Shown in pieces: positions 6,618 to 55,019 of a DNA stretch of 64,000 nucleotides; positions within the stretch are counted from its first letter, which is position 1; every line of letters begins with the position of its first letter. The stretch covers positions 32,770 through 96,769 of the forward strand of contig CAVQFO010000020.1 of the NCBI GenBank assembly GCA_963711725.1, given 5' to 3'. The notes under the pieces are model-generated. The model was not told the origin of the DNA and did not search any database. It was given only the letters and a program-made list of their open reading frames with translations. A program made the translations under genes and the position numbers. The DNA is from an uncultured Gammaproteobacteria bacterium (lineage in GTDB: Bacteria > Pseudomonadota > Gammaproteobacteria > Nitrococcales > Aquisalimonadaceae).

Positions 6618-7337
6618 CTATCGCGGCCCCGCCGCGGAAGCAAAGACCCAGCGTTCACCATAGGAAGGCACCGTGACGATCCGGTCCTCGACCCCCTCGA
6701 AGTGGTGCCCCAGCCGCCGCCTGATCTCCGCCCGCAGTTCAGGCTGGTGTTCGCTGCAGCACTGCATGCTGAACACGCCGTCGTTGCGCAGATGTCGAGC
6801 CACCTTGCCGAAGATCTCCTCCATGAATTCGCTTCGGGATTGATCCTCGCGCACCGGGTCCATGGTCAGATCGTAGATGATGGCGTCGTAGCGCCGGGGG
6901 TTGTCCAGGTAGGCGAAAGCGTCGCCGATAATCAGGTCCGCTTCATCGCGTTCGAACACATCGGCGCACAGGGCCGGCAGGTATTCCCGGGACAGCTCGA
7001 CCACCTTTTCGTCGATGTCCACCATGGTGGCGTGGGCGGCGCCTTCCTCCACCACGGTTTTCAGCACGCCGCCATCGCCCCCGCCCAGGATCAACACCTC
7101 ACCCAGGCTATCGGCCTCCACCAGGGGGCGCACCATGGCCTCGTTGTAGCTGTGGTCGCTCTCGGCGATCTGCAGGTCTTCGTCCAGGTACAGGATGCGC
7201 CCGTAGTCCGGGTCTTCGGCGATGACGATGTGCTGGTATTCCGAGTAGGTGTCTTTCAGCACCTCTTGGCCCTTGGCCTCGTATTCGGGCAGGGCTGTGG
7301 TGGCTTCTGCCGACACGGCGTGTCCCCCCTGATTCAA
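6618..7337 (-). CDS. Spermidine synthase-like polyamine aminopropyltransferase / SAM-dependent methyltransferase fold
   Basis: 239 aa. ..VLILGGGDGGVLKTV..MVDIDEKVVELSREYLP..GDAFAYL.. matches the spermidine synthase family signature. Confidence 0.7.
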   Translation of the reverse strand: MNQGGHAVSAEATTALPEYEAKGQEVLKDTYSEYQHIVIAEDPDYGRILYLDEDLQIAESDHSYNEAMVRPLVEADSLGEVLILGGGDGGVLKTVVEEGAAHATMVDIDEKVVELSREYLPALCADVFERDEADLIIGDAFAYLDNPRRYDAIIYDLTMDPVREDQSRSEFMEEIFGKVARHLRNDGVFSMQCCSEHQPELRAEIRRRLGHHFEGVEDRIVTVPSYGERWVFASAAGPR

Positions 7338-7404
7338 GATCGAAGGCCCACACTAGGTGTGCGGAAAACGGGCATGTTAACAAATCGTTGTTGGGGTCGA
7401 TTGG

Positions 7405-7509
7405 CCCCCCTCTCCCTGGCCCTCTCCCGCCAAGGGGAGAGGGGACTCTTCGGCCAGACTTTGGCAAAAGTAGCCTTCTTGCCCCCCTCGCCCCTGGCGG
7501 GAGAGGGGG
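7405..7509. repeat. REP-like hairpin repeats, family E (CCCTCTCCC...GGGAGAGGG)
   Basis: cctctcccgccaaggggagagg hairpin (7421-7443) and cccccctcgcccctggcgggagaggggg (7482-7509). The same motif family recurs at 21877-21987 and directly after the IS element (8738-8753). Confidence 0.7.
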
Positions 7510-7513
7510 TGGA

Positions 7514-8737
7514 TGGGTTACACAAATGACGGTATGGGCAAGGAGGATATGCCCATGACTAGGAAAGAGATTTGAAAATTGGATCTGAAGATGCAGTTGA
7601 TTGAGGAGTGGCTGAGGGGAGAGAGAGGTGTGAGAGAGCTGTCTAGAGGTTATGGGCTCTCTCGCAAGAGAGTCTACAAGTGGATTGGTCGGTATCAGGA
7701 GGAAGGCGATGGCGGGCTGCAGGAGAGACTCCGAGACTCGCACCATTGCGAGCATGCGGTGGCCACGGAGGTGGTAGAGCAGATTGTGGCGACGAAGAGG
7801 GCTCATCTCAGCTTCGGTCCCAAGAAGGTGATGGACTACTGCGCACGAGGCAGCCGCAGGTGAGCTGGCAGGCAGACATCACGGTCTGGGAGATACTCAA
7901 GGCAGTGGGTCTGGTCGAGAAGAGGCGACACAAGAGGCCTTACGAGCCAGACGAGCAACGCTTTGAGCTGGGAGATCGCAACAATGAAATGTGGAGTGTG
8001 GACTACAAGGGGCAGTACGAGGGAAAAGGCTGGTGCTGGTGTTATCGGCTGACGCTGACGGACAACGACAGTCGTTACCTGCTGGGCTGTCATGGGGTGA
8101 GTGAGACAGACTATGAGCAGGAGAAGAGAGTTTAGGAATGGGTGTTTCGTGAGCAAGGTCTGACGCAGGGGATTTAGTCGGATAACGGCTAGAGGTTTGA
8201 CAGAGGTAAGGAAGGGGGGCTGACGAGGTAGTAGAAATGGTGGATAGAGATGGGTATAAGGGTACACGGCACAAAACGGGCTATGAGTACGGAGAACGAC
8301 AGACATGAGAGGATGCACGGCTCACTGAATCGCGTCATTGGTCGGCGGATGCGCGGGGGGAGCTTGGTGCAGCAACAGCTCGGCTTACAAGCGTTCCGTG
8401 AGGAGAACAACGCACAGCGCAGTCAAGAAGCACAGAGAAGGCGAACAAAGGCAAGCGTCTATCAGCCCTCACAGCGTGCGAACTCGCCGGTGTTGCGGCC
8501 GATTGAATACCAGGTGGATCAGTCGGTGCGCAACGTACGCGACAACGGCGAGATCAAGTGGAGAGGACAACTGATCTACCTCAGTGAGCTGTTAGAGAAG
8601 CACGGCGTGGGCTTGCGCGAAGTTGAGCATGACCGTGTGGAATCCGATACAGCTTGCATCTGCTAGGTCACATCAACGTTAAAACCGCACGACTGGAGCA
8701 CGCATGCCACTGGCATGCGGTGGAGAGGTGTAACCCA
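7514..8737 (+). mobile_element. Decayed IS481-family insertion sequence
   Basis: 10-bp terminal inverted repeats tgggttacac (7514-7523) and gtgtaaccca (8728-8737). The interior is visibly lower in GC than the flanks and carries a fragmented DDE transposase. Both flanks are family-E REP sequence (gagaggggg). Confidence 0.7.
7579..8666 (+). pseudogene. IS481-family transposase (integrase core), with multiple frameshifts and stops
   Basis: The pieces are collinear with IS481-type transposases. HTH part: MDLKMQLIEEWLRGERGVRELSRGYGLSRKRVYKWIGRYQEEGDGGLQERLRDSHH. Core: MWSVDYKGQYEGKGWCWCYRLTLTDNDSRYLLGC. C-terminal part: NDRHERMHGSL..FREENNAQRS..IEYQVDQSVRNVRDNGEIKWRGQLIYLSELL. They lie in three frames. 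Confidence 0.75.
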
Positions 8738-8901
8738 GGAGAGGGGGATAAACAAAAATAAAAATTGGCAACGTCCGCACATTCCCCGTGCGCAACACCC
8801 CTCTAATCCGCTACAATCCCGCACGTTCTTTCGGGTATTTTCGCTGCCGTCTTGGCGGCCCGCCGGTGCCAGCGCGCGCCGGCCTTTCTTGGGGGAAGTC
8901 C

Positions 8902-10913
8902 TTGGCCCTGGCCCAATTCGCCGTTGTCCTGGCTTTGTGTTCCGCCGCCTTCGGGCTGCTGGCGGACACCTGGCCCCGGACGGCGAAATATCTGGGTTTC
9001 CTCCTGCTGGGCCTGAGCGGCGCCGCCTCCGTGGCCGCCGGTGTTCAGGCGGTGCTGGCCGGCTCCGTCCAGCTCGACATCCTTCCCCTGGGGTTGCCCT
9101 GGCTGACTGGCATCTGCGGCTGGATTCCCTGGCCGGGTTCTTTCTCGGTGTCGTGGGCCTGGGCTGCGTGGCGGTTGCGTTCTACGGGCCGGGCTACGTG
9201 CGCGAGTTCGCGCACGGCCGCCAGCCCATGGCCGTGCTGGGGGTGTTCACGGGCCTGTTCGTGGCCGGGATGCAGCTCGTTGTGTTGGCCGACGATGCCT
9301 TCGCCTTCATGGTGGCCTGGGAGTTGATGTCCCTGGCCAGCTATTTCCTGGTGACCTTCCAGCACCGTCAGGCCGCCAACCGGCGCGCGGGCTTCATCTA
9401 CCTGTTGATGGCCGAGATCGGGGCGCTGGCGATCCTGCTGGCCTTCGGCGTGCTGGCCGGCACCCACGGCAATTTCACCTTCGACGCCATGCGTCATGCG
9501 CATCCCGCGCTGCTATGGGGCAGCATTGCCTTCGCCCTGGCGCTGGTGGGTTTCGGGATGAAGGCCGGGCTGGTTCCGCTGCACGTCTGGCTGCCGGAAG
9601 CCCATCCCGTGGCGCCGTCGCATATATCCGCGTTGATGAGCGGCGTGATGCTCAAGGTGGCGATCTACGGCCTGATCCGTTTTGTGTTCGACCTGCTCGG
9701 CGCCGTGTATTGGGGCTGGGGCGTTGCCCTGCTCCTGGTGGGTGCGGTCAGCGCCCTCTACGGAATCCTTTTCGCCCTGGTTCAGACCGATCTCAAGCGG
9801 ATGCTGGCCTACAGCTCGGTGGAGAACGTGGGCATCATCGCCATGGCACTGGGCCTGGCGCTGGTGTTCCAAGGGGTGGGCCGTCCGGTGCTGGCGTCGT
9901 TGGCGTTGATCGCCGCCCTGTATCACGCTCTGAATCATTCGGTGTTCAAATCGCTGCTGTTCCTGGGCGCGGGCGCTGTGCTCCAGCGCAGCCACGAGCG
10001 TGATCTGGACCGGATGGGCGGGCTGATCCGCCGCATGCCGCAGACGGCGGCCCTGTTCCTGGTGGGTGCGGTCAGCATCTCCGCGCTGCCGCCGTTCAAC
10101 GGCTTCGTGTCGGAGTGGCTGCTGTTCCAGGCCTCGCTGCAGGCGCCGGTGCTGCATAGCGGCGTGCTGCGCTCCGTGATTCCCGTCATCGCGGCGATGC
10201 TGGCGCTCACCGGCGCGTTGGCGGTGGCCTGTTTCGTCAATGCTTACGGCATCGGTTTCCTCGGCCAGCCGCGGACGCGACATGTGGCCCACGCCCGGGA
10301 GGTGGACTGGGGCATGCGAATCGCCATGGGACTGCTGGCGGTGCTGTGTCTGACTCTGGGCGTGGCGCCGACCTATGTCATTGCGGCGCTGGGTCGGGTG
10401 ACCTCCCTGCTGGTGGGCGCGGACCTGAATGGGCTGGGCGGTTCCTGGCTGCATCTGGTGCCCGTATCCAGTCAGACGGCCTCCTACTCGGCACCTCTGG
10501 TGGTGATCGGCCTGCTGCTGGCCTGGGGCCTGATCTGGCTGCTGCTGCACCCGCGCGGGCGCCGGGCGGTACGCCGGGACGCGCCCTGGGATTGCGGTTT
10601 CGGCCCGCTGTCCGCCCGCATGCAATACACCTCCCAGGCCTTTTCCCAGCCGCCGCGCCGGGTGTTCGGCCTGGTCTATGACGTGCAGGAGCAGGTGGAG
10701 GAAACACGCGACCCGGCCGCGGAACTGCGGGTCCAGTCCATCAAGCATCAGCTCAACATCCGCGACCGGGTCTGGAACTGGGGCTATCTACCGGTGGCCC
10801 GCTGGCTGCAGACGGCGGCGCGGCTGGTGGGGCGCAGCCAGACCGGCCACATTCGCGCCTACCTGAGTTATTCCTTTGTCACGTTGCTGTTCCTGTTGTG
10901 GTGGATTACATGA
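8902..10913 (+). pseudogene. HyfB/HycC-like (NuoL/ND5-type) membrane subunit of a hydrogenase-4-like (Ehr-type) complex; single frameshift near 9103-9107, possibly an assembly error
   Basis: Candidate TTG start at 8902 after GGGGGAAG. The N-terminus ALAQFAVVLALCSAAFGLL...LPLGLPWL (frame of track ORF 8788) joins WHLRLDSLAGFFLGVVG...WELMSLASYFLV... (frame of track ORF 8715). About 670 aa in total, as for HyfB. The stop overlaps the next start (ATGA at 10910-10913). Confidence 0.75.
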
Positions 10914-11857
10914 ACGGCTGGGCGCTGGCGGCGGCGGAAACTATCCTGTTCCTGGCGCTGGGTCCGCTGCTGGCGGGCTGGGTGAAGGCGCTGAAGTGCC
11001 TGCTGCAGAACCGTCGGCCGCCGTCGCTGCTCCAGCCCTACCGCAATCTGGCCAAGCTGTTCCGCAAACAGGTGGTGGTGGCCGAGCAGGCCTCCTGGAT
11101 CTTCCGGGCCACGCCTTACATCGTGTTCGCCGCCATGGCGGTGGCCGCGGCGGTGGTGCCGCTGATCGCCGTGCGCCTGCCCACCGCCGGGATGGCGGAC
11201 GTCATCGTGCTGGTGGGATTGTTCGCCCTGGCCCGGTTTTTCCTGGCCCTGGCCGGTCTGGATATCGGCACCACCTTCGGCGGCATGGGCTCCTCGCGGG
11301 AGGTGATGATCGCCTCCCTGGCCGAGCCGGCCATGCTCATGGCGGTATTCACGCTGACCATGACCGCCGCCAGCACCAACCTGTCGGTGGCCATGCAGCA
11401 CATCCTGGACGCCGGGCTGGTGCTGAGGCCGTCGTTCATCTTCGCGCTGCTGGCGCTGCTTCTGGTGGCGGTGGCGGAGAATGCGCGTATCCCGGTGGAC
11501 AATCCGGCCACCCACCTGGAGCTGACCATGGTCCACGAGGCCATGATCCTGGAATACAGCGGCCGGCATCTGGCGCTGCTGGAATGGGCTTCCCAGCTCA
11601 AGCTGGTGATCTACGCCGCGCTGATCGCCAATGTGTTTTTCCCCTGGGGGCTGGCCTTGAACATGTCGCCCGAAGCGCTGGCCTACGGTCTGGGCAGCAC
11701 GCTGCTGAAGCTGGCCGTGCTGGGTGCGGTGCTGGCCTTGGCGGAGACGCTGCTGGCGAAGATGCGCCTGTTCCGGGTGCCGCAGTTTCTGAATCTGGCC
11801 TTTCTGCTGGCGCTGATCGGCATGCTCAGCCACGTGATTCTGGAGGTGGGCTCGTGA
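10910..11857 (+). CDS. HyfC/HycD-like (NuoH-type) membrane subunit
   Basis: 315 aa. ..LLQPYRNLAKLFRKQ..GLDIGTTFGGMGSSRE..AENARIPVDNPATHLELTMVHEAMILEYSG.. are typical formate hydrogenlyase subunit 4 motifs. Confidence 0.85.
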   Translation: MNGWALAAAETILFLALGPLLAGWVKALKCLLQNRRPPSLLQPYRNLAKLFRKQVVVAEQASWIFRATPYIVFAAMAVAAAVVPLIAVRLPTAGMADVIVLVGLFALARFFLALAGLDIGTTFGGMGSSREVMIASLAEPAMLMAVFTLTMTAASTNLSVAMQHILDAGLVLRPSFIFALLALLLVAVAENARIPVDNPATHLELTMVHEAMILEYSGRHLALLEWASQLKLVIYAALIANVFFPWGLALNMSPEALAYGLGSTLLKLAVLGAVLALAETLLAKMRLFRVPQFLNLAFLLALIGMLSHVILEVGS

Positions 11858-11876
11858 TGGAGCAGATGCTCTGACC

Positions 11877-12551
11877 ATGCAATTCGCAAACCTCAGCCTG
11901 TTCGAGCAGGCCGTCATGGTGATGGCGGCGATGATCCTGTTCACCTCGTTTCTGCTGCTGGCCAGCCAGCGGCTGGTGGTGCTGATCCGTATCTTCGCCT
12001 GGCAGGGTGTGCTGCTGGCGCTGGTCACGGCGCTGGTGGCCTATGTATCCAACCGACATCATCTCTACATCTCGGCACTGCTTACTCTGGGGCTGAAGGC
12101 GCTGCTGATTCCGTGGATGCTGCACCGGCTCGTGCACCGTTTCGGTATCCAGAACTTCGCCGAATCCATGGTGCAGCCGGCGCTACTGCTGCTGGGCGGC
12201 GCCGGGCTGGTGGTGTTCAGCTACTACGTGGCTCTCCCCATCGAGACCTTGTCCACCGCGGTGACCCGCAACACCATCGCCGTGAGTCTGGCCGTTGTCC
12301 TGCTGTCGCTGTTGCTGATCATCACCCGGCGCAAGGCCGTGAGCCAGGTGATCGGTTTCATGTCGCTGGAGAACGGCCTGTTCTTCGCCGCCGTGGCTTC
12401 GACCTTCGGCATGCCCATGGTGGTGGAGCTGGGCGTGGCCTTCGACGTGCTGGTGGCCGCCATCCTGTTCGGCGTGTTCTTCTTCCAGATCCGCGCCAGT
12501 TTCGATTCCCTGGATACCGACCGGCTGACCCGCCTGCGGGAGGTGGATTAG
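11877..12551 (+). CDS. HyfE-like (NuoK-related) membrane subunit
   Basis: 224 aa, polytopic. ..VIGFMSLENGLFFAAV.. and C-terminus FDSLDTDRLTRLRE, as in hydrogenase-4 component E. Confidence 0.75.
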   Translation: MQFANLSLFEQAVMVMAAMILFTSFLLLASQRLVVLIRIFAWQGVLLALVTALVAYVSNRHHLYISALLTLGLKALLIPWMLHRLVHRFGIQNFAESMVQPALLLLGGAGLVVFSYYVALPIETLSTAVTRNTIAVSLAVVLLSLLLIITRRKAVSQVIGFMSLENGLFFAAVASTFGMPMVVELGVAFDVLVAAILFGVFFFQIRASFDSLDTDRLTRLREVD

Positions 12552-14038
12552 TGGTCTCGCTCTGGCTGACGCTGGCCGTTCCGCTGCTGGCCGTGCTGCT
12601 GCTGGCGGCCTTTGGTGATCGCGCTTGGGCTGGGCGGTTCAACAGCCTCTGCGCATCGGCCACTTTTGTGGCCGCCCTGGCCATGGCCGGCGACGTGCTG
12701 CGGACGGGCTCGTTCACCACGGCGCATCAGCTCTTTTACGTCGATACCTTCAACGTCTACCTGATTCTGCTCACGGCCTTCGTGGGCATGACCACCGCCT
12801 GGTTCTCCCGGCCCTACATGGATCACGAAGTGGACAGCGGCCGGGTTACGGCCGTGCGCATGCGCTTCTACCACGCCATGTATCAGGCCTTCATCCTGTC
12901 CATGCTGGTGGCGCTGTCGACCAATAACCTGGGCTTGCTGTGGGTGGCCATGGAGGCGGCGACTCTGGCCACGGTGCTGCTGGTCAGTCTGTACCGCACA
13001 CCCGAGGCGGTGGAGGCGGCCTGGAAGTATTTCGTGCTCTGCGGCGTGGGCATCGCCCAGGCGCTGTTCGGCACGGTGCTGCTCAATTTTGCCGCCGAGC
13101 CGGTGGTGCAGGACAAATCCCAGGCCCTGCTGTGGAGTACGCTGCACGGCGTGGCCACCCATTTGGACCCCACCGTGATGGGCCTGGCCTTCGTGTTCAT
13201 GATGGTGGGCTATGGCACCAAGGTGGGCCTGGTGCCGCTGCACAACTGGCTGCCGGACGCCCACTCCGAGGGCCCCACGCCGGTCTCGGCGGTGCTGTCC
13301 GGGCTGCTGCTGAACGTGGCCTTGTACGCCCTGGTGCGCCTGAAGATGCTGGTGGACCTGTCGCTGTCCGGCGGTGGCGGCGCCGCCGGGCCGCACTTGG
13401 CCGGCCAGTTGATGATGGGCTTCGGCCTGCTCAGTTTCGTGTCGGCGGGGCTGTTCCTGCACCGCCAGCGTGACATCAAGCGCTTGTTCAGTTATTCCTC
13501 CATCGAGCACATGGGGCTGATGACCTTCGGCTTCGGCCTGGGCGGGCCGCTGGCCACCTTCGCCGCGCTGTTGCACATGACGGTTCACTCGCTGACGAAG
13601 TCCGCCATCTTCGTCACCGTGGGCCATGCCTCCCATATCGCCGGCACCCAGGTCATGGACAAGATCCGCGGCTTGATCGCCACCCAGCCGCTGGTGGGCT
13701 GGGGGCTGCTGCTGGGTACGGCGGCCATCGCCGGTTTCCCGCCCTTCGGCGTATTCGCCAGTGAGTTCCTGCTGCTCAGCGCCACCATGAAGAGCATCCC
13801 CTGGCTCACCGTGCCGCTGCTGGTCGGGCTGGCGGTCGCCTTCGCCGGGCTGTTCCGGCATGTCCAGCCCATGGTCTTCGGCGAGGTGCCCGAGGGGCAG
13901 AGCGCCGTGCGCGCCAGCATGTTGCCGGTGGTGCTGCACCTCATCCTGGTGCTGTGGCTGGGTCTGGCCATCCCGGGCCCGCTTGCCCACTGGTTTGACG
14001 CCGCGACCCGGCTGATCGCGGGGCAGGGGGCGCTATGA
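12551..14038 (+). CDS. HyfF-like (NuoM/N-type antiporter-like) membrane subunit
   Basis: GTG 12551 overlaps the hyfE-like stop (TAGTG). ..GLLWVAMEAATLATVLLV..YFVLCGVGIA..GYGTKVGLVPLHNWLPDAHSEGPTPVSA..SSIEHMG.. The track ORF (12113-14038) is over-extended at the N-terminus. Confidence 0.85.
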   Translation: MVSLWLTLAVPLLAVLLLAAFGDRAWAGRFNSLCASATFVAALAMAGDVLRTGSFTTAHQLFYVDTFNVYLILLTAFVGMTTAWFSRPYMDHEVDSGRVTAVRMRFYHAMYQAFILSMLVALSTNNLGLLWVAMEAATLATVLLVSLYRTPEAVEAAWKYFVLCGVGIAQALFGTVLLNFAAEPVVQDKSQALLWSTLHGVATHLDPTVMGLAFVFMMVGYGTKVGLVPLHNWLPDAHSEGPTPVSAVLSGLLLNVALYALVRLKMLVDLSLSGGGGAAGPHLAGQLMMGFGLLSFVSAGLFLHRQRDIKRLFSYSSIEHMGLMTFGFGLGGPLATFAALLHMTVHSLTKSAIFVTVGHASHIAGTQVMDKIRGLIATQPLVGWGLLLGTAAIAGFPPFGVFASEFLLLSATMKSIPWLTVPLLVGLAVAFAGLFRHVQPMVFGEVPEGQSAVRASMLPVVLHLILVLWLGLAIPGPLAHWFDAATRLIAGQGAL

Positions 14039-15627
14039 CCGGCCAGCGGCAACCCTTCGACTGGTGGAGCGGCTTCCTGCAGCGCTTGCAGGCTCAGGAT
14101 GTCCGTGCCGAAGAGGCAGGACCCGTACCGCCGGCGCGCGTGGTTCAGGTCTATCCGCGGGATTGGGCGGAGCTGATGCGCCTGGCCCGGGAGTGGGGCA
14201 TGCGCTGGTGCGCCAAATGGGCGGATCCGGCGGACGACGGTTTCCAGGTCGCCGCCTGCCTGGAGCACGGCGGCGATTACATGCTCGTCCGCGCCCTGGT
14301 GCCCCTGGATGAACCCATCCTGCCCTCCGATGCCGGGATCTATCCCGCCGCCGACCGGATGGAGCGCCACATCCACGATCTCACAGGAGTGGATTTTGCC
14401 GCTCAGCCCGACGGGCGCCGCTGGACCCGCCATCAGGCCTGGCCGGCGGATCGGTTCCCGCTGCGCCGGGATTATCCCCCGGCCGGCGAAAGCACCGATC
14501 CCGTGCCGCCAGATGCGGACTATCCGTTCCTGCGTGCCCAGGGCAGCGGCGTCTGCGAGATCCCCGTGGGGCCGATCCACGCCGGCATCATCGAGCCCGG
14601 CCATTTCCGCTTCCAGGCCGTGGGCGAGACGGTGCTGAACCTGGAAGAGCGCCTGGGCTACACCCACAAGGGCACCGAAAAGGTGGCCGAGGGCCGGGAT
14701 GCCGCCGGTCTGGCCCGGCTGGCCGGGCGGGTCTCCGGCGACACCACCGTGGCCCACACCTGGGCCGCCTGCATGGCCATGGAGCGCGCCGCCGGTATCG
14801 AAGTCCCGCCGCGGGCGCTGTGGCTGCGGGCGCTGATGGCCGAGCGCGAGCGGGTCGCCAATCATCTGGGCGACATCGGCGCCATCTGCAACGACGTCGG
14901 CTTCGCCTTCGCTCAATACCAGTTCAGCCGCCTGCGCGAACAATGGCAGCGGGTCAGCGCCGCCGCCTTCGGTCATCGGCTGATGATGGATCGTATCGTG
15001 CCCGGCGGCGTGGCCGTGGACCTCACCCCCGAAGAAGGCGACCGGCAAGCTGCCCAGGTGGCGGAAATCCGTACCGAAGTTGAATACCTCATGACCGTGC
15101 TGCGCGACCAGGAATCCCTGCAGGATCGCTTGGTCACCACCGGCATCCTGCCTCCGGACATCGCCCGCAGCCTGGGTTGCCTGGGCTACGTGGGCCGGGC
15201 CAGCGGCCACGCCTTCGACCTGCGAAGGCACGCAGCCTACCCTCCCTATGACGGTTTCGAAGTGCCCGTGCCGGTCTACACCGAAGGGGACGTGGCCGCG
15301 CGGTTACAGGTGCGCGTGGACGAACTGCTGACCAGTTTGGGCCTGATCGAGCGAATCTTGTTGGGATTGCCGACCGGCGATATTGCGGCGCCTTGGACGC
15401 CTCCGTCCACCGCCGTCGCCGGCCTTGGTTTGGTGGAAGGCTGGCGCGGCGAAATCCTGGCCTACGTCCGCTTTGGCACGGACGGCGCCATCGCCCGCTA
15501 CTTCCCCCGCGACCCCAGTTGGATGAACTGGCCCGCGCTGGAGCACCTGCTCCGCGGCAACATCGTCCCGGACTTTCCGGTGTGCAACAAATCGGTCAAC
15601 GGCAGCTACTCCGGCGTGGATTTGTGA
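14035..15627 (+). CDS. HyfG/HycE-like large subunit (NuoC-NuoD fusion) lacking all four NiFe-ligand cysteines
   Basis: 530 aa; ATGA overlap with the previous gene. Conserved GPIHAGIIEPGHFRF and ERLGYTHKGTEK. It has RVSGDTTVAH where HycE has RVCGICGFAH (RxCGxCxxxH), and ends ..GNIVPDFPVCNKSVNGSYSGVDL where hydrogenases have DPCxxCxxR. Confidence 0.85.
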   Translation: MTGQRQPFDWWSGFLQRLQAQDVRAEEAGPVPPARVVQVYPRDWAELMRLAREWGMRWCAKWADPADDGFQVAACLEHGGDYMLVRALVPLDEPILPSDAGIYPAADRMERHIHDLTGVDFAAQPDGRRWTRHQAWPADRFPLRRDYPPAGESTDPVPPDADYPFLRAQGSGVCEIPVGPIHAGIIEPGHFRFQAVGETVLNLEERLGYTHKGTEKVAEGRDAAGLARLAGRVSGDTTVAHTWAACMAMERAAGIEVPPRALWLRALMAERERVANHLGDIGAICNDVGFAFAQYQFSRLREQWQRVSAAAFGHRLMMDRIVPGGVAVDLTPEEGDRQAAQVAEIRTEVEYLMTVLRDQESLQDRLVTTGILPPDIARSLGCLGYVGRASGHAFDLRRHAAYPPYDGFEVPVPVYTEGDVAARLQVRVDELLTSLGLIERILLGLPTGDIAAPWTPPSTAVAGLGLVEGWRGEILAYVRFGTDGAIARYFPRDPSWMNWPALEHLLRGNIVPDFPVCNKSVNGSYSGVDL

Positions 15628-15641
15628 CGAGGAGATAAACC

Positions 15642-16151
15642 GTGCTGCGAATGCTCAACAAGATCCGAACCGTGGGCGTCATCACCGAGCCGCTGCCCGA
15701 GCAGATGGAATCGGCCTTGAGTGAGACCGGCGAGCGCCTGCGCAAGGAAATCGGCCGCCGCTTCGCCGGCAGCCTCGCCATTCGCGCCGTGGACGCCGGT
15801 TCGTGCAACGGCTGCGAACTGGAGATCCACGCCCTCAACAACGCCTACTACGACATCGAACGCTTCGGCGTGCACTTCGTCGCCTCCCCCCGCCATGCCG
15901 ACATGCTGCTGGTCACCGGCCCCGTCTCCAAACACATGGAAGCCGCCCTGCGGCGCGTCTACGACGCCACGCCCGATCCCAAACTGGTGGTGGCCGTGGG
16001 CGAATGCGGCGCCACCGGCGGCGAGTTCGCCGGCTGCTACGCCACCTGCGGAGGCGTGAGCAACGTGCTGCCGGTGGATGCCGTCATCCCTGGTTGCCCG
16101 CCCACGCCCTTGCAGTTGATGTGTGGGTTGTTGGAAGTGATTCGCGGCTAA
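15642..16151 (+). CDS. HyfI/HycG-like small subunit (NuoB-type, [4Fe-4S])
   Basis: GTG 15642 lies 7 nt after AGGAG. DAGSCNGCELE, SPRHADMLLVTG, AVGECGATGGEF and PGCPPTP retain all four cluster cysteines. Confidence 0.85.
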   Translation: MLRMLNKIRTVGVITEPLPEQMESALSETGERLRKEIGRRFAGSLAIRAVDAGSCNGCELEIHALNNAYYDIERFGVHFVASPRHADMLLVTGPVSKHMEAALRRVYDATPDPKLVVAVGECGATGGEFAGCYATCGGVSNVLPVDAVIPGCPPTPLQLMCGLLEVIRG

Positions 16152-16168
16152 GGGTTAGCGGCGATATC

Positions 16169-16252
16169 CCGTAGCCCGGATGAGGCGAAGCGCAATCCGG
16201 GGTCTTCGGCCTGGACGTTCCCGGATTCCGCTTCGCTACATCCGGGCTACGG
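16169..16252. repeat. 84-nt imperfect palindrome, REP family C (GTAGCCCGGATG..AAGCG..ATCCGGG)
   Basis: ccgtagcccggatg (16169-16182) pairs with catccgggctacgg (16239-16252), with further inner pairing. A family-B half site gtagggtgggcgcagcccac follows at 16280-16301. Confidence 0.7.
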
Positions 16253-16333
16253 TGCCGAAGGTTTAGCCACCGTCGCATCGTAGGGTGGGCGCAGCCCACG
16301 CGGACTCTTCGTTCTCCGGCGGTCAGCCGGGGG

Positions 16334-16957
16334 TTAGCGGGCCGCCAGGGCCTTCAGGTCATGGGCCATGGCCCCGACTTTGTCTTTGTACGTCATGACC
16401 AGTTGCACGTGGCCTTTGGGGTCGAAGGCAAAAATCGCGGCGCTGTGATACACGGGATAATTGCCGTCGCTGTCCTTCTTGCCATAGCGGTAGACCACCC
16501 GGTAGCGCTTGGTGAGGGCCGTGAGTTCGCTTTTTGTGCCGGTCAGGCCGACGATGTGGGGGCCGAAGGCGTGGACGTAGGTGCCGAGTGTCTTCGGCGA
16601 ATCCCTGGCCGGGTCGACGCTGACGAAGAGCATGCGCACCCGATCCGCCAGCGGGCCCATCTTGTGGAAGGCCTCTTCGACTTTGGCCAGTGTGGTCGGG
16701 CAGACGTCGGGGCAGTGGGTATAGCCGAAGTACAGCAGATTGATCTTGCCGAAGTAGCGTTTGGCGTGGACGGTATCGCCATCGGTGTCGGTCAGAGTGA
16801 AGTGGAGATCCGGCATCACGCCGGCGATGTGTTTGGTCTGCCAATGGACGTGTCCATGGCCGCTGCATCCGCCCACCAGCAGGGCCGCGCCGAGCACCAA
16901 CGCGGCGCGGGCCCCGAGGCCGAATCTTCGATTCCCTGTAGGCGCCTCAATGGGCAC
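16334..16957 (-). CDS. senC: SCO1/SenC family copper chaperone
   Basis: FGYTHCPDVCPTTL (CxxxC) plus a conserved His. N-terminal lipoprotein-like signal ..ALVLGAALLVGGCSG. The likely start is GTG 16957, overlapping the upstream stop; the track start at 17059 is over-extended. Confidence 0.8.
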   Translation of the reverse strand: MPIEAPTGNRRFGLGARAALVLGAALLVGGCSGHGHVHWQTKHIAGVMPDLHFTLTDTDGDTVHAKRYFGKINLLYFGYTHCPDVCPTTLAKVEEAFHKMGPLADRVRMLFVSVDPARDSPKTLGTYVHAFGPHIVGLTGTKSELTALTKRYRVVYRYGKKDSDGNYPVYHSAAIFAFDPKGHVQLVMTYKDKVGAMAHDLKALAAR

Positions 16958-17381
16958 CGGTGGCTCCCGCGCCCTTGACGGCGAACGGTTCCGTGACGGT
17001 GCTGCCGTCGGCGAACTTGAGGGTGATCTTGACGGTATCGCCGACCTTGAGCGGATCATGGGGCGGCATCAGCATGATGTGGTAGCCGCCGGGCGCGAAG
17101 TGGGCGGCCTGGCCGGCAGGGATGGCGACGCGCATGACGTGGACCATCTTCTCCTGGCCATTTTCGCTTTTGCTCTGATGCAGCATGGCCTTCTTGAAGC
17201 CCACCGCGGACGCGCCGGTGAGTGCGACTTCGTGGCCGGATCGGTTGGAAATGGTGCAGTAGGCGGCGGCCGGAAGTTTGCCCGGCAGAAGCCGGATCCA
17301 ACCATCGGATACGGTAACGCCGCCGGCCCATGCGCTGGAGGACGCCAGCAGCGCCACGGCGATTGTCATTTTCTTCAGCAT
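16947..17381 (-). CDS. Periplasmic copper chaperone PCu(A)C (DUF461)
   Basis: MLKKMTIAVALLASSSAWA signal peptide, then ..GGYHIMLM.. (H-x-M-x-M copper motif). ATG at 17381. Confidence 0.75.
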   Translation of the reverse strand: MLKKMTIAVALLASSSAWAGGVTVSDGWIRLLPGKLPAAAYCTISNRSGHEVALTGASAVGFKKAMLHQSKSENGQEKMVHVMRVAIPAGQAAHFAPGGYHIMLMPPHDPLKVGDTVKITLKFADGSTVTEPFAVKGAGATGAH

Positions 17382-17448
17382 GCCCGGTTCCCCTGGGAGT
17401 GGTCTAAAATCCAGGCCGTAAGAAAACAGATGGCCGCTTGTGCGGCAA

Positions 17449-17465
17449 TGCGACAAATTGTCGCA
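17449..17465. promoter_or_regulatory. Candidate RegA/PrrA-type binding site (perfect 7-3-7 palindrome TGCGACA-AAT-TGTCGCA)
   Basis: Lies in the divergent PCuAC-senC / regBA intergenic region. The core GCGAC-N5-GTCGC matches the GCGNC-N5-GNCGC type reported for RegA/PrrA/RegR, recalled from memory. Confidence 0.45.
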
Positions 17466-17690
17466 GGGGCGGTACCGAGCCATCTGCTAGCCGGTATATT
17501 TCATGAATTCGCGTGAACGTCGCGTATGGGTTGGAGTTCACAAGTGTTTTTCCGATTGAGCGCCGTATCCGGGTATACGGTCGATTGAGGAAAAGCGCTT
17601 GTGGGCTCAAAGACATAGCGAGGGCGCGTGAACTCATGGAATATCCGGGCTAGCATAACGGCCGGGCAGACATCTTCCGGAAAATCCACC

Positions 17691-19490
17691 ATGTTTCAGC
17701 AGATCGATCCCGATTCCGAGTATCTGGCCGTCAACGTCCGTCGGCTCGTGCTTCTGCGCTTTCTTGCCGTCGGCGGTCAGATCGCGACCATCGTGGTGAC
17801 GGAGCGGGCGCTGGGCATGCACCTGCCGTGGCTGCCGCTGGCGTGCATTCTCGGTCTGTTGCTCGGCTTCAATCTGCTTACGGCGCGACGACTTCGCCGA
17901 GGTGGGAACGTGTCCATCGCGACCCAGCTCTGGGTGGATTGCATCGCCCTGACGCTGGTGCTGGGCCTGACCGGCGGCGGAACCAATCCTTTCGCATGGT
18001 TGCTTCTGCTGCCGCTGGTGTTTGCGGCCATGACGCTTTCCCGACGGGCGGTGTGGTGGTTCGGCGGCTTCACGGCCGCGTGCTATACGGCCGTGGCCTG
18101 GACTCATGTTCCGCTTCCCGGTATGCACTCCCTGGGCGAGCCGGGCTTCCGCCTGCATGTGTTCGGCATGTGGGTGGGATTCATCGTGTGCTCGGCCACC
18201 ATCGCCTACTTCGTCACCGACATTGCCCAGACTTTGCGCCGCCGGGAACGGGAGCTGGCCGCGGCGCGGGAGCGTGAACTGCGCGACGACCATCTGCTGG
18301 GCGTGGGGATCGTCGCCGCGGGCGCCGCCCATGAGCTCGGCACGCCGCTTTCCACCATGGCCGTTCTGATCCGTGAAATGAGCGAGCGGGCCTGCCTGAA
18401 GGAAGACCCGGATGCCCGTGACGACCTGGCCTTGCTGCGCGGGCAGATCGACCGCTGCAAGCGGGTGTTGTCGGTGCTTTCAGGCGCCGCCTATGAGGAG
18501 GAACAGGAAACGGGGACATCCATGGCGCTGCCCGAGTATCTCAAACGGGTGGTTTGCCAGTGGAAGCGGGGAATGCCCGAGCGCGACGTGCTCGTGGAAT
18601 GCGAGATCGAAGATGCGGAACCGTGCATTCCCGCGAGCCTGGCCTTGACCCAGACCCTGGCCAACCTGCTTCAGAACGCCGCCGAAGCCAGCCGGCAACC
18701 GATTGGCCTGCGAGCGTTTGCTTCCAACGGCCAGGTCGTTCTGGAAGTCCGCGACCGGGGCGCGGGCCCGGCAGCCATTGGCGATCCGCACCGGCCGGTA
18801 CGCAGTGCAAAGGGGCCTGGGCGCGGTCTCGGCCTGTATTTGTCCAACGCCTTGATCGAGCGTCTGGGCGGTCGCCTTGAGTTCGACTCCGCCGTCGGCG
18901 GCGGGACCGTTGCCCGCATCACGTTGCCGCTGCGGTCGCGGGGGCGGTTTCCAGTCATGCCGCCTGAGAACGTGCTGATTGTCGACGACGACCCGGTGTT
19001 CTGCCGGGTGCTGGCGCGGGCGCTGGATCGCCGTGGGTATCGCGTCGCCCAGGCCCAAAACCTGGCCGATGCCCGGGCAGCACTCAAGACGACAATGCCG
19101 GGCTATATGGTCCTGGATCTGAGGCTGGACGAAGAATCGGGTCTGGAGATAATCGACGAGGCGTTGAATGCCGTCCCCGAGATGGAGATCGTCGTGCTCA
19201 CCGGGTTCGCCAGCATCGCCACCGCCGTGGAAGCGATCAAGCGGGGCGCGCGCGACTATCTTGCCAAGCCGGCCGATGCCGACGAAATCCTGGCGGCCCT
19301 GACCGCCGCGCCTCGGGAATCAAAGGCGTCCATCCCCGAGCACCCGCCGTCGGTCCGAAAACTCGAGTGGGAACACATTCAGCGCGTGCTCCAGCAGCAC
19401 GGCGGCAACATCTCGGCCACCGCCCGCGCCCTGAACATGCATCGCCGTACCTTGCAGCGGAAACTGGGCAAGAAGCCGGTGCGGGACTGA
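17691..19490 (+). CDS. RegB/PrrB-type redox sensor kinase fused in frame to a RegA/PrrA-type response regulator, as the sequence stands
   Basis: RegB hallmarks: quinone-site heptapeptide GGGTNPF, H-box AAGAAHELGTPLS, ATPase G-boxes. From M at 18957: receiver LIVDDDPVF..VLDLRLDEESG..KP, and the near-invariant RegA HTH ISATARALNMHRRTLQRKL. There is no stop between the two parts. The track start 17628 is possible; ATG 17691 (MFQQIDPD) is preferred. Confidence 0.7.
   Translation: MFQQIDPDSEYLAVNVRRLVLLRFLAVGGQIATIVVTERALGMHLPWLPLACILGLLLGFNLLTARRLRRGGNVSIATQLWVDCIALTLVLGLTGGGTNPFAWLLLLPLVFAAMTLSRRAVWWFGGFTAACYTAVAWTHVPLPGMHSLGEPGFRLHVFGMWVGFIVCSATIAYFVTDIAQTLRRRERELAAARERELRDDHLLGVGIVAAGAAHELGTPLSTMAVLIREMSERACLKEDPDARDDLALLRGQIDRCKRVLSVLSGAAYEEEQETGTSMALPEYLKRVVCQWKRGMPERDVLVECEIEDAEPCIPASLALTQTLANLLQNAAEASRQPIGLRAFASNGQVVLEVRDRGAGPAAIGDPHRPVRSAKGPGRGLGLYLSNALIERLGGRLEFDSAVGGGTVARITLPLRSRGRFPVMPPENVLIVDDDPVFCRVLARALDRRGYRVAQAQNLADARAALKTTMPGYMVLDLRLDEESGLEIIDEALNAVPEMEIVVLTGFASIATAVEAIKRGARDYLAKPADADEILAALTAAPRESKASIPEHPPSVRKLEWEHIQRVLQQHGGNISATARALNMHRRTLQRKLGKKPVRD
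18957..19490 (+). CDS. regA: RegA/PrrA/ActR-type response regulator (alternative model as a separate gene)
   Basis: ATG 18957 gives a 177-aa protein of normal RegA size. A +/-1 change in the G5 run at 18940-18944 would terminate regB at TGA 18965-18967 or 18976-18978, giving the usual overlapping two-gene arrangement. Confidence 0.45.
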   Translation: MPPENVLIVDDDPVFCRVLARALDRRGYRVAQAQNLADARAALKTTMPGYMVLDLRLDEESGLEIIDEALNAVPEMEIVVLTGFASIATAVEAIKRGARDYLAKPADADEILAALTAAPRESKASIPEHPPSVRKLEWEHIQRVLQQHGGNISATARALNMHRRTLQRKLGKKPVRD

Positions 19491-19886: not shown

Positions 19887-19949
19887 GTAGGGTGGGCGCA
19901 GCCGCTACGCTGTACATCGCGAAATCCGCGTGGGCTTCGCCCACCCTAC
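19887..19949. repeat. REP family B hairpin (GTAGGGTGGGCG ... CGCCCACCCTAC)
   Basis: 12-bp arms at 19887-19898 and 19938-19949. Related copies at 16280-16301 and 29238-29268. Confidence 0.7.
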
Positions 19950-22132: not shown

Positions 22133-25771
<3,639 letters not shown>

Positions 25772-44112: not shown

Positions 44113-44457
44113 TCAGGATGCCATCGGCGTATACGCCGTGCACCACCCCTTGGTGTTGACCACATGTCCCGGAAACACGGCGCAGGTTCCGTAATCGGCC
44201 TTGCGGTCGCCCGTGTACAACTGGCAGTTGTGGCAGAACTCGCCTTTCTTGTGTTTCGCGTTCTTGGAGCTGGTGGCGTCGTTGGTGTAGTCGAAGTTCT
44301 TCGCGGTCTGGCTGGACGGATCCAGTTTCGGAAGGCCTTCGGCCGCCGAGGCGAGCTTCTGGTGGAAGAGTGCGCCCGCGAACGGGACCGCGGCAATTCC
44401 CACAAGGCTCTTCCTCAGGAAATCGCGGCGACTGTGTTTGATGCTTTCATCAGACAT
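44113..44457 (-). CDS. High-potential iron-sulfur protein (HiPIP) with a Tat signal
   Basis: SRRDFLR twin-arginine signal. Four Cys in HiPIP spacing: FCHNCQLY...GTCAVFPG...GWCTAY. Confidence 0.85.
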   Translation of the reverse strand: MSDESIKHSRRDFLRKSLVGIAAVPFAGALFHQKLASAAEGLPKLDPSSQTAKNFDYTNDATSSKNAKHKKGEFCHNCQLYTGDRKADYGTCAVFPGHVVNTKGWCTAYTPMAS

Positions 44458-52971: not shown

Positions 52972-53470
52972 ATGAAGGGCGATACCAAGGTTATCGAGTA
53001 CCTAAACAAGGCGCTGTACAACGAGCTCACCGCGATCAATCAGTATTTCCTTCATGCACGGATGCTCAAGAACTGGGGCCTCACCCGGCTTGGCCGACAA
53101 GGAATACGAGGAATCCATCGACGAGATGAAGCATGCGGATAGGCTCATTGAGCGGATTCTGTTTCTGGAAGGGCTGCCCAATCTGCAGGACCTGGGCAAG
53201 CTGATGCTGGGTGAGCACGTGCAGGAAATCCTGCAATGCGACCTTCGCGCCGAGCAGGAGGCCTGTCCGCTGTTGCGCGAGGCCATCGAGTACTGCGAGC
53301 AGAACAAGGACTACGTGAGTCGCGACCTGCTGCAGGACATCCTGGAGGACGAGGAAGAACACATCGACTGGCTGGAGACCCAGCTGGACCTCATCGAGCG
53401 GGTGGGCGATCAGAACTATTCCGCAGTCGCAGATGTAAAGGGCAGGCCGTGGTCGGTGATCAGACGGTGA
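52972..53470 (+). pseudogene. bfr: Bacterioferritin with one clear frameshift (about 53092) and a probable second one near the C-terminus (possibly assembly errors)
   Basis: ATG 52972 after [46 protein letters not shown], then an extra G in ttggcc, then [36 protein letters not shown]...[23 protein letters not shown]. The alternative frame ends ..PQSQM-TAA at 53436-53438, as typical Bfr proteins do. Confidence 0.8.
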
Positions 53471-53932
53471 CGAAGCTCACTTTGCCGCCGTTTTCCCGGC
53501 GCTGGATGTAGTCGCGGACCATGGCTTCGCTCTCCCCCAGGAACTCCCGGAACTGCAGGCCGAGCCGAAAGGCCTGCTCCGGGCCCACGTAGTGGGTGAA
53601 GGCGACTCGGCAGCGGATGGTGGCCGTGGCCACCGTGTCCTGCCAGGGCAGGGGGAGGCGGACTGTTACCGTGGCGTCGGGCTTGAAGTGCTCGGCGCAC
53701 ACCAGTCCGAGGCCGCCCGAGGAGATGTTGGTGGCTTTGGCGTCCAGCACTCGGCCGTCGGCGGTGCATAGAAGTGCGTGCCGGTCCATGTAGAGATGAA
53801 AGCGCTCATGTCGGCGCCGTTCCGCCCCGCTGTCCACTGCTCCATAGTCCTCCCGACGAAGTGCCCGCGCCTCGCTGGCCTTTCGAGAACAAGATACTGC
53901 CGGAGACTTACGAAGGGCGGGACGCCGCTCAC
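53460..53932 (-). pseudogene. PilZ domain protein with a frameshift just after the start codon (possibly an assembly error)
   Basis: GGGAGG-N3-ATG at 53932 (MEQ..) is out of frame by 1 nt with ..AERRRHERF (RxxxR)...DAKATNISSGGLGL (D-x-S-x-x-G).... Confidence 0.65.
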
Positions 53933-53982
53933 AAAAAGGCCGCCCTGAAGGCGGCCTTTCTCGATCTGCGATATGGCGGCGC

Positions 53983-54588
<606 letters not shown>

Positions 54589-54827
54589 CGAAATCCTCCG
54601 TTGATCAAATGAATAAAACGATGCCGGCCGCCCCGGGTGGGGCGGGCCTGTTTGGAAGCATTCCAAATTATACGCGTGGAGGCGTGTGTCGAGAACCGGC
54701 CAAGTTAGTGGAATCACAGAGGCGCAGCGGGCATGGAAACCACTCAGGTCCTGTCCGATTGGCGGAAGTCCCGGTGCGCTACCCGACCTGGCGGCCCAAT
54801 ATCATTCAGCACAATGACTTTTGTGGT

Positions 54828-54910
54828 CTCGCCAAGGCGCCGAGAACGCCAAGAGATACCGAAGTGGATTTCATGGGTTCCTTGGCGTTGTCGGCCGGCG
54901 CCTTGGCGAG
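54828..54910. repeat. Nested hairpin repeat
   Basis: ctcgccaaggcgccg (54828-54842) pairs with cggcgccttggcgag (54896-54910); inner pair aacgccaag with cttggcgtt. Confidence 0.6.
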
Positions 54911-55019
54911 AGGCCTTCCGTTCCCCTCTCCGCTGCGGAGCCCTTGGAAAGCGGCGGGCGCATTGAACTCCATCAATCTAAGTCGGTGCACATGCCCCCG
55001 GCCATTCGGGGCGACTTAC

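Follow-up and report, generated by a model that had tools for sequence, protein, structure and literature searches.

The window analysed here is a stretch of 64,000 nucleotides from an uncultured gammaproteobacterium. At positions 8902-16151, it carries six genes on the + strand that have coding signatures with a high G+C content at third codon positions (GC3) and that resemble hyfB, hyfC, hyfE, hyfF, hyfG, and hyfI of hydrogenase-4 systems. This operon almost certainly belongs to the Hyq/Ehr family. A preliminary description of the sequence had presented it as a Cys-less, Ehr-type relative of the group 4 hydrogenases, and both the gene set and the loss of the NiFe ligands bear this out. With somewhat less than even confidence, we propose that the encoded complex is an ion-translocating redox module, in which proton-coupled electron transfer between a soluble carrier and a substrate held in a remodelled pocket would be linked to H+ translocation.

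The first gene, hyfB/hyqB (8902-10913), has a TTG start codon with a GGGGGA ribosome-binding site and encodes an antiporter-like membrane subunit of the HycC/NuoL type. The protein contains the Pfam domain Proton_antipo_M and matches the NCBIfam model PRK06521 for hydrogenase 4 subunit B (824 bits), its best match among PDB sequences being HycC (7z0s_C, E = 4e-67). An ATGA overlap at 10910 leads to hyfC/hyqC (10910-11857), which encodes the membrane anchor subunit of the HycD/NuoH type (Pfam NADHdh, 7e-33). Its closest PDB sequences are HycD (7z0s_D, E = 3e-45) and then MbhM, and no complex I NuoH chain was found below 1e-5. The third gene, hyfE/hyqE (11877-12551), codes for a small polytopic membrane subunit. 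This protein has no Pfam or PDB sequence match and its score with the NCBIfam model PRK11492, “hydrogenase 4 membrane subunit,” is under the cut-off (87 bits vs. 136); its position is kept in related loci. The second antiporter-like subunit is encoded by hyfF/hyqF (12551-14038; NCBIfam hydrogenase 4 subunit F, 739 bits), the GTG start codon of which overlaps the hyfE stop codon (TAGTG at 12549-12553). A second ATGA overlap, at 14035, precedes hyfG/hyqG (14035-15627). This gene encodes a NuoC::NuoD-fused “large subunit” carrying the Pfam domains Complex1_30kDa, Complex1_49kDa, and NiFeSe_Hases, in which motif alignment and family conservation reveal no NiFe ligands. Finally, hyfI/hyqI (15642-16151) starts with a GTG codon at 15642, ahead of which lies a GAGGAG ribosome-binding site, and encodes a small subunit of the NuoB/HycG type (Pfam Oxidored_q6). 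The tight coupling of the six genes, with their coordinates and their ATGA and TAGTG overlaps, is as first described.

Loss of the NiFe ligands and of the relay domain

The top PDB match of HyfG is Escherichia coli HycE (7z0s_E, E = 9e-67). In the phmmer alignment of the two proteins, HycE RVCGICGFAH faces HyfG RVSGDTTVAH, and HycE DPCYSCTD faces NGSYSGVD. Hence, the four positions of the NiFe ligands are occupied by Ser234, Thr237, Ser524, and Gly527, none of which is a cysteine, in keeping with the replacement of all four ligands noticed at the outset. The idea that the cysteines are present but displaced by indels was rejected. Indeed, the large subunit encoded by an independent metagenome contig, here called the sister contig (L001, 98.7% nucleotide identity), is 100% identical to HyfG of the window, and motifs of the RVSGD[ST]TVAH and KSVNGSYSGxDL types are found in 120 of the best 120 database homologues (59-92% identical). 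The loss is therefore not an assembly artefact; it is both real and ancient. The search gave at least 8000 candidates, and homologues number in the thousands.

The former active-site segments are also the most conserved parts of HyfG. In an alignment of 124 sequences, the remodelled motifs are near-invariant, and the conserved segments are EIPVGPxHAGIIEPGHFRFQA, LGYxHKGxEK, RxSGD, ERERxxNH, and PRDPSW...NIVPDFPxCNKSxNxSYSGxDL. The protein ends three residues past the position of the fourth cysteine, a point that is equivalent, given the HycE cleavage site, to the C-terminus of processed, mature HycE. An exhaustive phmmer search of 1.84 billion representatives yielded 1006 matches below 1e-30, and the 115 full-length sequences among the best 150 were classified according to the residues at the four ligand positions. 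No cysteine was found in 86 of them, all four in 20, one in seven, and three in two. Of the 86 Cys-less representatives, 75 have Asp236, against none of the 20 four-Cys ones, which makes this residue a marker of the Cys-less clade. The hydrogenase-type EPGHFR motif with Glu187 is kept in HyfG, and this glutamate occurs in 80 of the 86 Cys-less representatives.

An AlphaFold2 (AF2) model of the HyfG monomer has a predicted TM-score (pTM) of 0.86, and its best fold match is HycE (TM-score 0.84). MbsL (6u8y_L) is also detectable as a sequence and structural relative. The per-residue confidence (pLDDT) of the model falls below 50 at residues 149-199, 207-214, and 508-530. These segments include the most conserved stretches of the protein (about 175-198, 207-216, and 509-530), as would be expected for interface or active-site elements that require partner subunits. 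Since the active site and the interface both lie below a pLDDT of 50, the monomer model says nothing about the pocket.

The small subunit was rightly described as NuoB-like with four [4Fe-4S] cysteines. The ligands, within GSCNGCELE, GxCGxxGG, and GCPP, are all present and are invariant in about 73 related loci. The protein is, however, not a plain NuoB, as it begins with a HycF-like N-terminal vestige of about 13 residues. In the window as in rhizobia, only these first residues (MLRMLNKIRTVGV) of a HycF-like N-terminus are left and the two-cluster ferredoxin core is deleted. The region of the vestige (window 15642-15700) aligns with Fer4-fused relatives. In Desulfosporosinus orientis, the small subunit (L089:11612-12322, 236 amino acids) is a fusion of a HycF-like part with two [4Fe-4S] clusters, residues 4-96 of which match 7z0s_F, and of a HycG-like part. 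Moreover, a metagenome scan with a four-Cys representative as the query returned Cys-less, Fer4-fused relatives, L086 (9056-9946) and L087 (2545-3423), in which a two-[4Fe-4S] ferredoxin domain is still joined to the small subunit. No gene for an FeS relay subunit or domain of the HycF, HyfH, or NuoI type was found in the operon, and no hyp, nif, fdh, nuo, or endopeptidase gene in the 64-kb window, as had already been stated for HycF/NuoI-type, formate dehydrogenase, hyp, and endopeptidase genes. Together, these proteins describe a stepwise reduction, from six-gene enzymes with four cysteines and a fused relay, through Cys-less enzymes with the relay, to the Hyq type without either. In our reading, the Hyq/Ehr family derives from a six-gene group 4 [NiFe] hydrogenase by such reduction.

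The membrane arm is unchanged relative to that of the four-Cys enzymes. A glutamate in transmembrane helix 5 and lysines in helices 7 and 12 are conserved in both HyfB and HyfF, and the motifs around the HyfB lysines of helices 7, 8, and 12 are conserved across the family. In HyfF, the lysine of helix 8 is replaced by an asparagine (LSGLLLNVALYA, window 13290-13330). This asparagine is found in 71 of 73 loci, and both Rhizobium HyqF and the corresponding protein of the four-Cys D. orientis enzyme have it too; HyfB keeps the lysine. The residues expected for ion translocation are intact in the sequence, which agrees with the earlier view of the operon as an ion-translocating module.

Relatives, state of the window copy, and neighbourhood

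A scan of one genome per GTDB species gave 302 relatives. For the 80 best loci, 10-kb flanks were included and all open reading frames (ORFs) were clustered. The closest genome relatives are 55-67% identical. Among the hosts of the 80 loci are Acidiferrobacterales, Sulfurifustaceae, Thiogranum, Muproteobacteria, Chromatiaceae, and Thiotrichaceae, as well as Halothiobacillus, Hydrogenophilales, Thiobacillaceae, Rhodoferax, Methylococcaceae, and others, that is, oxidisers of sulfur, iron, and methane together with purple sulfur bacteria. The order B-C-E-F-G-I is preserved in nearly all sufficiently long loci, and in at least 58 of the related loci the six genes stand alone, without other complex I genes. 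The NADH-oxidising N module, NuoI, NuoA, NuoJ, and NuoK are absent from the operon and from these stand-alone loci. The hypothesis that the operon is part of a complex I or Mrp cluster continued elsewhere was rejected for this reason. Earlier authors noticed this six-gene cluster in Cupriavidus metallidurans and C. necator (PMC2864759), in Acidithiobacillus ferrooxidans (PMC7735108), and in Nitrospira (10.1101/144600; PMC10284858). For A. ferrooxidans, HydDB classed the catalytic subunit as a non-hydrogenase, and cells growing on H2 yielded none of the subunits (PMC7735108). The Hyq family also occurs in aerobic diazotrophs (PMC3357923), and the hyqRBCEFGI arrangement is found in alphaproteobacterial diazotrophs besides Azorhizobium (PMC2650096; PMC3357923). 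Operons of the Hyq type were further seen on plasmids or secondary replicons, namely plasmid 2 of Ca. Methylocalor cossyra (L084) and a megaplasmid of Burkholderia sp. JSH-S8 (L085). The Methylocalor copy is flanked by transposases and contains an additional ORF of 103 amino acids between hyfF and hyfG. These plasmid copies suggest horizontal mobility of the six-gene module.

Across the 80 loci, no recurrent neighbour was found besides hyqR (13 loci) and a SulP/STAS gene (11 loci). An orthologue of HyqR, a protein of about 100 amino acids with an XRE-type helix-turn-helix (HTH), 57-70% identical to rhizobial HyqR, is encoded directly upstream of hyfB in 13 gammaproteobacterial loci (L003, L007, L008, L009, L032, L044, L048, L054, L056, L067, L068, L077, and L079). 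The gene hyqR is thus conserved between alpha- and gammaproteobacteria. It has no tblastn match in the window and is an accessory feature, missing from the window copy. In 11 gamma- and betaproteobacterial loci (L004, L011, L015, L020, L028, L035, L038, L051, L058, L066, and L078), the operon is preceded, within about 0.4-3.5 kb, by a gene for the SulP/STAS anion transporter (Sulfate_transp and STAS domains). A spermidine synthase gene beside the Burkholderia plasmid copy was considered as a shared neighbour and rejected, as it does not recur.

Host range and neighbours bring up a first alternative, in which the proximal [4Fe-4S] cluster itself would catalyse the reduction, or in reverse the oxidation, of a small hydrophilic substrate within the former NiFe cavity, in an ion-coupled manner and by analogy with the archaeal membrane-bound sulfane reductase MBS; sulfane or polysulfide sulfur would be the obvious candidate. 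Sulfur oxidisers make up the overwhelming majority of the hosts of the nearest relatives (Acidiferrobacterales, Sulfurifustaceae, Thiogranum, Chromatiaceae, Thiotrichaceae, Halothiobacillus, and Thiobacillaceae), and the SulP/STAS gene lies just upstream of the operon in two proteobacterial classes. The detectable relationship with MbsL, the polar and conserved pocket, and the retained proton relay point the same way. Yet MBS reportedly keeps a NuoI-type subunit, which the window complex does not have. Besides, no sulfur-metabolism gene is a conserved neighbour, and the substrates of SulP proteins are ambiguous (sulfate, bicarbonate, or other anions). The family also has members among rhizobia, methanotrophs, and Nitrospira and in Azospirillum, Cupriavidus, and Burkholderia, hosts for which no shared sulfur metabolism is obvious (in part after PMC3357923). 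We regard such sulfur chemistry as highly improbable.

As for the copy carried by the window, all six genes of the operon are present, as first described, but hyfB is frameshifted. One G is missing at 9107 by comparison with the sister contig (CTGAGCTGG in L001, CTGA-CTGG here), outside any homopolymer, which shifts the frame after about 68 codons; hyfB of the sister contig is intact and encodes 670 amino acids. Another G is missing from a G-run at 18940, with the result that a RegB-like and a RegA-like protein read as a single ORF of 620 amino acids (window 17628-19490). The sister contig has two separate genes here, for 425 and 177 amino acids, and the fusion is probably an assembly indel. 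A hydantoinase/oxoprolinase gene coding for 1212 amino acids is intact in the window (22133-25771) and falls into at least four pieces in the sister contig (L001:13440-16918) through single-base insertions. Both assemblies are indel-prone. Given the indel at 18940 and the many indels of the sister contig, the 1-nt deletion in hyfB is likely an assembly error.

The frameshift may alternatively be read as a sign that the window copy is a decaying pseudogene cluster, silenced by this lesion and by the insertion sequence (IS) lying about 120 bp upstream. This is a separate question, which we kept outside the weighing of mechanisms. In addition to the deletion that splits hyfB, hyqR is missing and the upstream region is bordered by the IS481-like remnant. 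However, the lesion is the only one in 7.2 kb. Between the window and the sister contig, 62 codon differences in the operon are synonymous vs. three non-synonymous; the genes have therefore been under purifying selection, at least until very recently. Considering the other indels, assembly error is the simpler explanation, and we leave decay only a slender chance.

The IS481-family transposase remnant (7579-8780, + strand; Pfam HTH_28, LZ_Tnp_IS481, and rve_3) has its HTH and LZ_Tnp_IS481 matches at the N-terminus and its rve_3 match at the C-terminus. It is broken over at least three reading frames, and these breaks could be assembly errors. The window matches the sister contig only from 8781 onwards, about 120 bp ahead of the hyfB start codon, so the IS element or its remnant is specific to the window strain. 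It occupies the position where related loci carry hyqR or the SulP gene.

On the other side of the operon, hyfI faces a convergent SCO1/SenC gene across a spacer that contains repetitive extragenic palindrome (REP)-like sequences (16171-16299, no strand assigned), recognised from their sequence and their repeat copies. The copies (GTAGCCCGGATGAGGCGAAGCGC, GTAGGGTGGGCGCAGCCCAC) lie at 16171-16193/16228-16250 and 16280-16299, with further ones at 19887-19949; chance alone would give about 0.01 matches. They may act as a transcription stop or as RNA-stabilising hairpins. The convergent genes for SCO1/SenC and PCuAC are followed by divergent genes for a RegB-like kinase and a RegA-like regulator (window 16334-19490). 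This arrangement resembles the senC-regA/regB (prrBCA) neighbourhood of Rhodobacter, and the block is a self-contained redox-regulatory locus. Within the 80 related loci, the SpeE-like, SCO1/SenC, PCuAC, and RegB/RegA neighbours are shared with the sister contig only. Hence, the IS remnant, the copper chaperones, and the RegB/RegA system are present as the preliminary description had listed them, but they are lineage-specific and not conserved. The locus and its neighbours add no functional clue.

Scans for sigma-70 promoters and terminators over 7300-17700 gave results at or below the shuffle expectation. A scan for sigma-54/NifA sites (TGGCAC-N5-TTGC-like) upstream of hyfB and of hyqR showed no enrichment, in a setting that had no positive control and in which the native upstream DNA is replaced by the IS; the sigma-54-like matches at +19 and +22 are coding sequence. 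Elsewhere, the window contains genes for a high-potential iron-sulfur protein (HiPIP), UbiA/UbiC, and RelA/SpoT, the remainder being mostly housekeeping genes. An oxidative-stress cluster (53054-64000 and 44113-44457) comprises Dps/ferritin, two peroxiredoxins, rubrerythrin, and a DUF3501 protein with a CCG-domain protein, and the same regions hold three consecutive CLC chloride-channel genes and the HiPIP gene. The stress genes, the CLC channels, and the HiPIP suggest an aerobic, possibly acid-tolerant lithotroph.

A possible mechanism and its competitors

As the sequence shows, HyfB, HyfF, HyfC, and HyfE form an ion-translocating membrane arm of the formate hydrogenlyase (FHL) type, and the peripheral arm is down to two proteins, the NuoCD-like subunit and a NuoB-like one that carries a single, proximal [4Fe-4S] cluster. 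The NiFe site has been rebuilt as a polar pocket free of metal ligands and strongly constrained, lined by Ser234, Asp236, Thr237, Ser524, and the C-terminal SYSGxDL, with Glu187 kept as the proton relay. In the proposed redox module, loss of the relay domain should open the cluster to a soluble carrier. Such a low-potential carrier, a ferredoxin or a flavodoxin, would dock in the place of the lost HycF-like domain and trade electrons with the cluster. Within the remodelled pocket, where it borders HyfC, a substrate would undergo proton-coupled oxidation or reduction, and this chemistry would be reversibly coupled to H+ translocation. A membrane quinone would be the most economical candidate for this substrate. 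In a chemolithotroph or a diazotroph, the useful direction would be uphill, the proton-motive force driving electrons from quinol onto the carrier. The two substrates and this direction are what we infer. That the module still performs proton-coupled electron transfer is most probable, because Cys-less relatives keep the relay and because the cluster and Glu187 are conserved. Reverse electron transport or a supply of low-potential reductant is indispensable to many of the hosts. The host range thus fits a machine making such reductant from the proton-motive force, a link to physiology that we also infer.

Several points weigh against this proposal. The complex I quinone ligands are missing and the anchor is HycD-like, so that any quinone site would have to be a novel one. 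In the 80 loci, the conserved neighbours of the operon include no gene for a ferredoxin or a flavodoxin. In Azorhizobium, the in vivo data concern H2 uptake and evolution, including in a nifK hupSL mutant (PMC3357923), and the mechanism explains these H2 data only indirectly. Substrates for the members of the Hyq family remain putative in any case, and hyfB is frameshifted in the window. Finally, the Hyq branch has lost its FeS entry domain and could have a non-redox or sensory role instead.

This last point leads to an alternative without net redox catalysis, where the complex would be a cation/proton antiporter or a redox-gated proton conduit and the FeS cluster would be structural or would sense the redox state of the cytoplasm or of the quinone pool. 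Both the ancestral electron entry (the HycF-like part) and the exit (the NiFe site) are gone and the Mrp-like membrane arm is fully conserved. The RegB/RegA and copper-chaperone neighbours in the window are redox-themed, though unconserved. Nevertheless, the pocket residues, Glu187, Asp236, and the four cluster ligands are extremely conserved over a deep clade, beyond the needs of a scaffold. Furthermore, related Cys-less complexes keep a two-cluster relay, and the phenotypes in Azorhizobium are related to redox and H2. A complex deprived of redox catalysis is, in our view, very unlikely.

The preliminary description had also held that no complex of this kind has an assigned role. This does not apply to the orthologous hyqBCEFGI genes, for which mutant physiology exists (PMC2650096; PMC3357923). 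Mutants deleted for hyq grow more slowly as diazotrophs; the operon depends on NifA and was connected with H2 recycling in N2 fixation (PMC2650096). According to PMC3357923, hyq is required for about 80% of the very high H2 production measured below 1 uM O2. This production is maintained in a nifK hupSL mutant, and 20% of it is left in a hyq hupSL double mutant. In the same paper, HyqG proteins are said to lack both CxxC motifs and the NiFe site is called “uncertain, if not unlikely,” and the authors infer a reversible H2:ubiquinone oxidoreductase from the mutant physiology. A search of the literature for later functional work on Ehr, Hyq, and hyfBCEFGI found only genome descriptions, Geobacter proteomics, and three papers from the Ludwig laboratory.

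Following these authors, the complex could be a true “endo-hydrogenase,” i.e., a reversible H2:quinone oxidoreductase with a non-canonical site at HyqG/HyqI, devoid of Cys-ligated NiFe and coupled to the proton-motive force. The orthology of the window operon to hyqBCEFGI speaks for it, as do the slower diazotrophic growth of the mutant and the NifA dependence (PMC2650096), the hyq-dependent share of the H2 output and its persistence in nifK hupSL (PMC3357923), and the retention of Glu187 and of a hydrogenase-type fold. Conversely, the four NiFe ligands are absent across the clade, no hyp or endopeptidase gene exists in the 64 kb, the authors themselves doubt the NiFe site, and a fifth of the H2 is retained in the hyq hupSL mutant (PMC3357923). 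The A. ferrooxidans homologue, a non-hydrogenase for HydDB, was undetected on H2 (PMC7735108), and the H2 activity is deduced from mutant physiology. The complex I quinone ligands are absent too. In an ungapped phmmer alignment with Thermus thermophilus Nqo4 (2fug_4), His38 corresponds to Ile186 of HyfG and Tyr87 to Gly235. Because of these replacements, the published claim of a “conserved” complex I quinone site in Hyq has no residue-level support. All in all, we consider the endo-hydrogenase unlikely. The statement of the preliminary description that the complex is not a hydrogenase is reasonable from the sequence but conflicts with the sole in vivo data on the family, those from Azorhizobium.

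Under the proposed redox module, these phenotypes may find another explanation. When few electrons flow through nitrogenase, the H2:N2 ratio rises. Such a low flux, together with over-reduced carriers feeding another H2-evolving enzyme, could account for the phenotypes.

A more specific and bolder version, which we hold to be somewhat unlikely, is a minimal “reverse complex I,” a single-cluster pump transferring electrons from quinol to ferredoxin or flavodoxin through a new, metal-free pocket lined by Asp, Ser, and Thr. Such a pump would supply low-potential reductant in aerobic chemolithoautotrophs and diazotrophs, and the hyq phenotypes would be explained without a Cys-less hydrogenase. A stranger variant, which we place on a par with it, is that the FeS cluster and the polar pocket would catalyse H2 chemistry without NiFe. 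The complex would be important if it turned out to pump in reverse, from quinol to ferredoxin, or to catalyse H2 chemistry free of NiFe. The supply of low-potential reductant in aerobic lithotrophs and diazotrophs is a long-standing question, and so is the role of the widespread Cys-less relatives of energy-converting hydrogenases. Asp236, the S234/T237/S524 set, the C-terminal SYSGxDL, and the exposed proximal cluster are targets for mutagenesis and structural work.

Comparison with known systems

With complex I, the window complex has in common the NuoC::D fusion, a NuoB-type subunit with a cluster at the N2 position, and homologous antiporter-like pumps. However, the motif of the small-subunit cluster is CxxC in the window and CC in complex I, the anchor scores as HycD, and NuoA, E, F, G, I, J, and K have no counterparts in the operon. 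Among solved structures, E. coli FHL-1 (HycBCDEFG, PDB 7Z0S) is the best match for four of the subunits, through HycC, HycD, HycE, and HycG. In FHL-1 and FHL-2, unlike the window complex, the NiFe ligands are present, HycB and HycF form an FeS relay, FdhF is a further component, HycI cleaves off a C-terminal extension, and maturation depends on hyp genes. The window has no equivalent of any of these.

The nearest four-Cys enzymes are those of Firmicutes (Desulfosporosinus, Desulfitobacteriaceae, Sporomusa, and Phosphitispora). In D. orientis DSM 765 (L089), the gene order is B-C-E-F-G-I, as in the window. The large subunits of these enzymes are about 38-41% identical to HyfG, have in common with it HAGIIEPGHFRF and the INKSF..Y motif, and likewise have no C-terminal extension. 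In contrast to the window protein, they keep RICGACSFSH and LCYSCLDR, with all four cysteines, and in their small subunit a HycF part is fused to the HycG part, adding two [4Fe-4S] clusters. Because Ehr sequences cluster next to group 4f (PMC10284858), the Firmicutes enzymes are probably members of HydDB group 4f.

Ehr complexes (Marreiros 2013, as cited in PMC4758237, PMC6349859, and PMC10284858) combine large and small subunits of the group 4 type with NuoH-like and antiporter-like subunits, the NiFe cysteines being absent. The same sources give GSU0739-45 of Geobacter sulfurreducens and the Nitrospira Ehr as examples and presume them to be ion-translocating, and Geobacter Ehr was more abundant on formate in proteomics (PMC7894505). 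As in the window, the group 4-type subunits of Ehr are encoded together, outside a nuo operon, with a large subunit devoid of NiFe cysteines. Ehr is a heterogeneous umbrella, some members keeping a NuoI-like domain (L086 and L087) or adjoining formate dehydrogenase genes, whereas the window operon is of the minimal six-gene Hyq type, with the relay domain reduced to a vestige.

The closest system is the Hyq operon hyqRBCEFGI of Azorhizobium caulinodans and of Rhizobium leguminosarum/johnstonii (Ng 2009, PMC2650096; Ciccolella 2010, PMC2930871; Sprecher 2012, PMC3357923), whose six structural genes and their order are those of the window. At the R. johnstonii plasmid locus (L083), the encoded HyqG and HyqI are 51 and 60% identical, respectively, to the window proteins. 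GRVSGDTTVAH of the window aligns with GRTSGDSTVAY of Rhizobium HyqG, and CNKSVNGSYSGVDL of the window with the C-terminal CNKSFNCSYSGHDL of Rhizobium. The motifs GRxSGD[ST]TVA, C-terminal CNKSxNxSYSGxDL, and GSCNGCELE are common to both systems, and neither has equivalents of HyfA, HyfD, HyfH, or HyfJ. On these grounds, the window operon is a gammaproteobacterial Hyq operon, a subtype of Ehr belonging to a gamma- and betaproteobacterial branch. Differences are that the window has an IS remnant in place of hyqR, that alphaproteobacterial HyqG proteins have an extra conserved cysteine (NCSYSG) where the window branch has Gly523, and that the host is an uncultured gammaproteobacterium with sulfur and iron oxidisers as its closest relatives, unlike the rhizobial diazotrophs. 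The locus is thus another copy of a known and previously described, enigmatic family that has been partly studied by genetics. The vestigial relay, the missing complex I quinone ligands, and Asp236 as a clade marker are new here, and the comparison ties the “hyfBCEFGI” clusters of sulfur oxidisers to the genetically studied Hyq of rhizobia.

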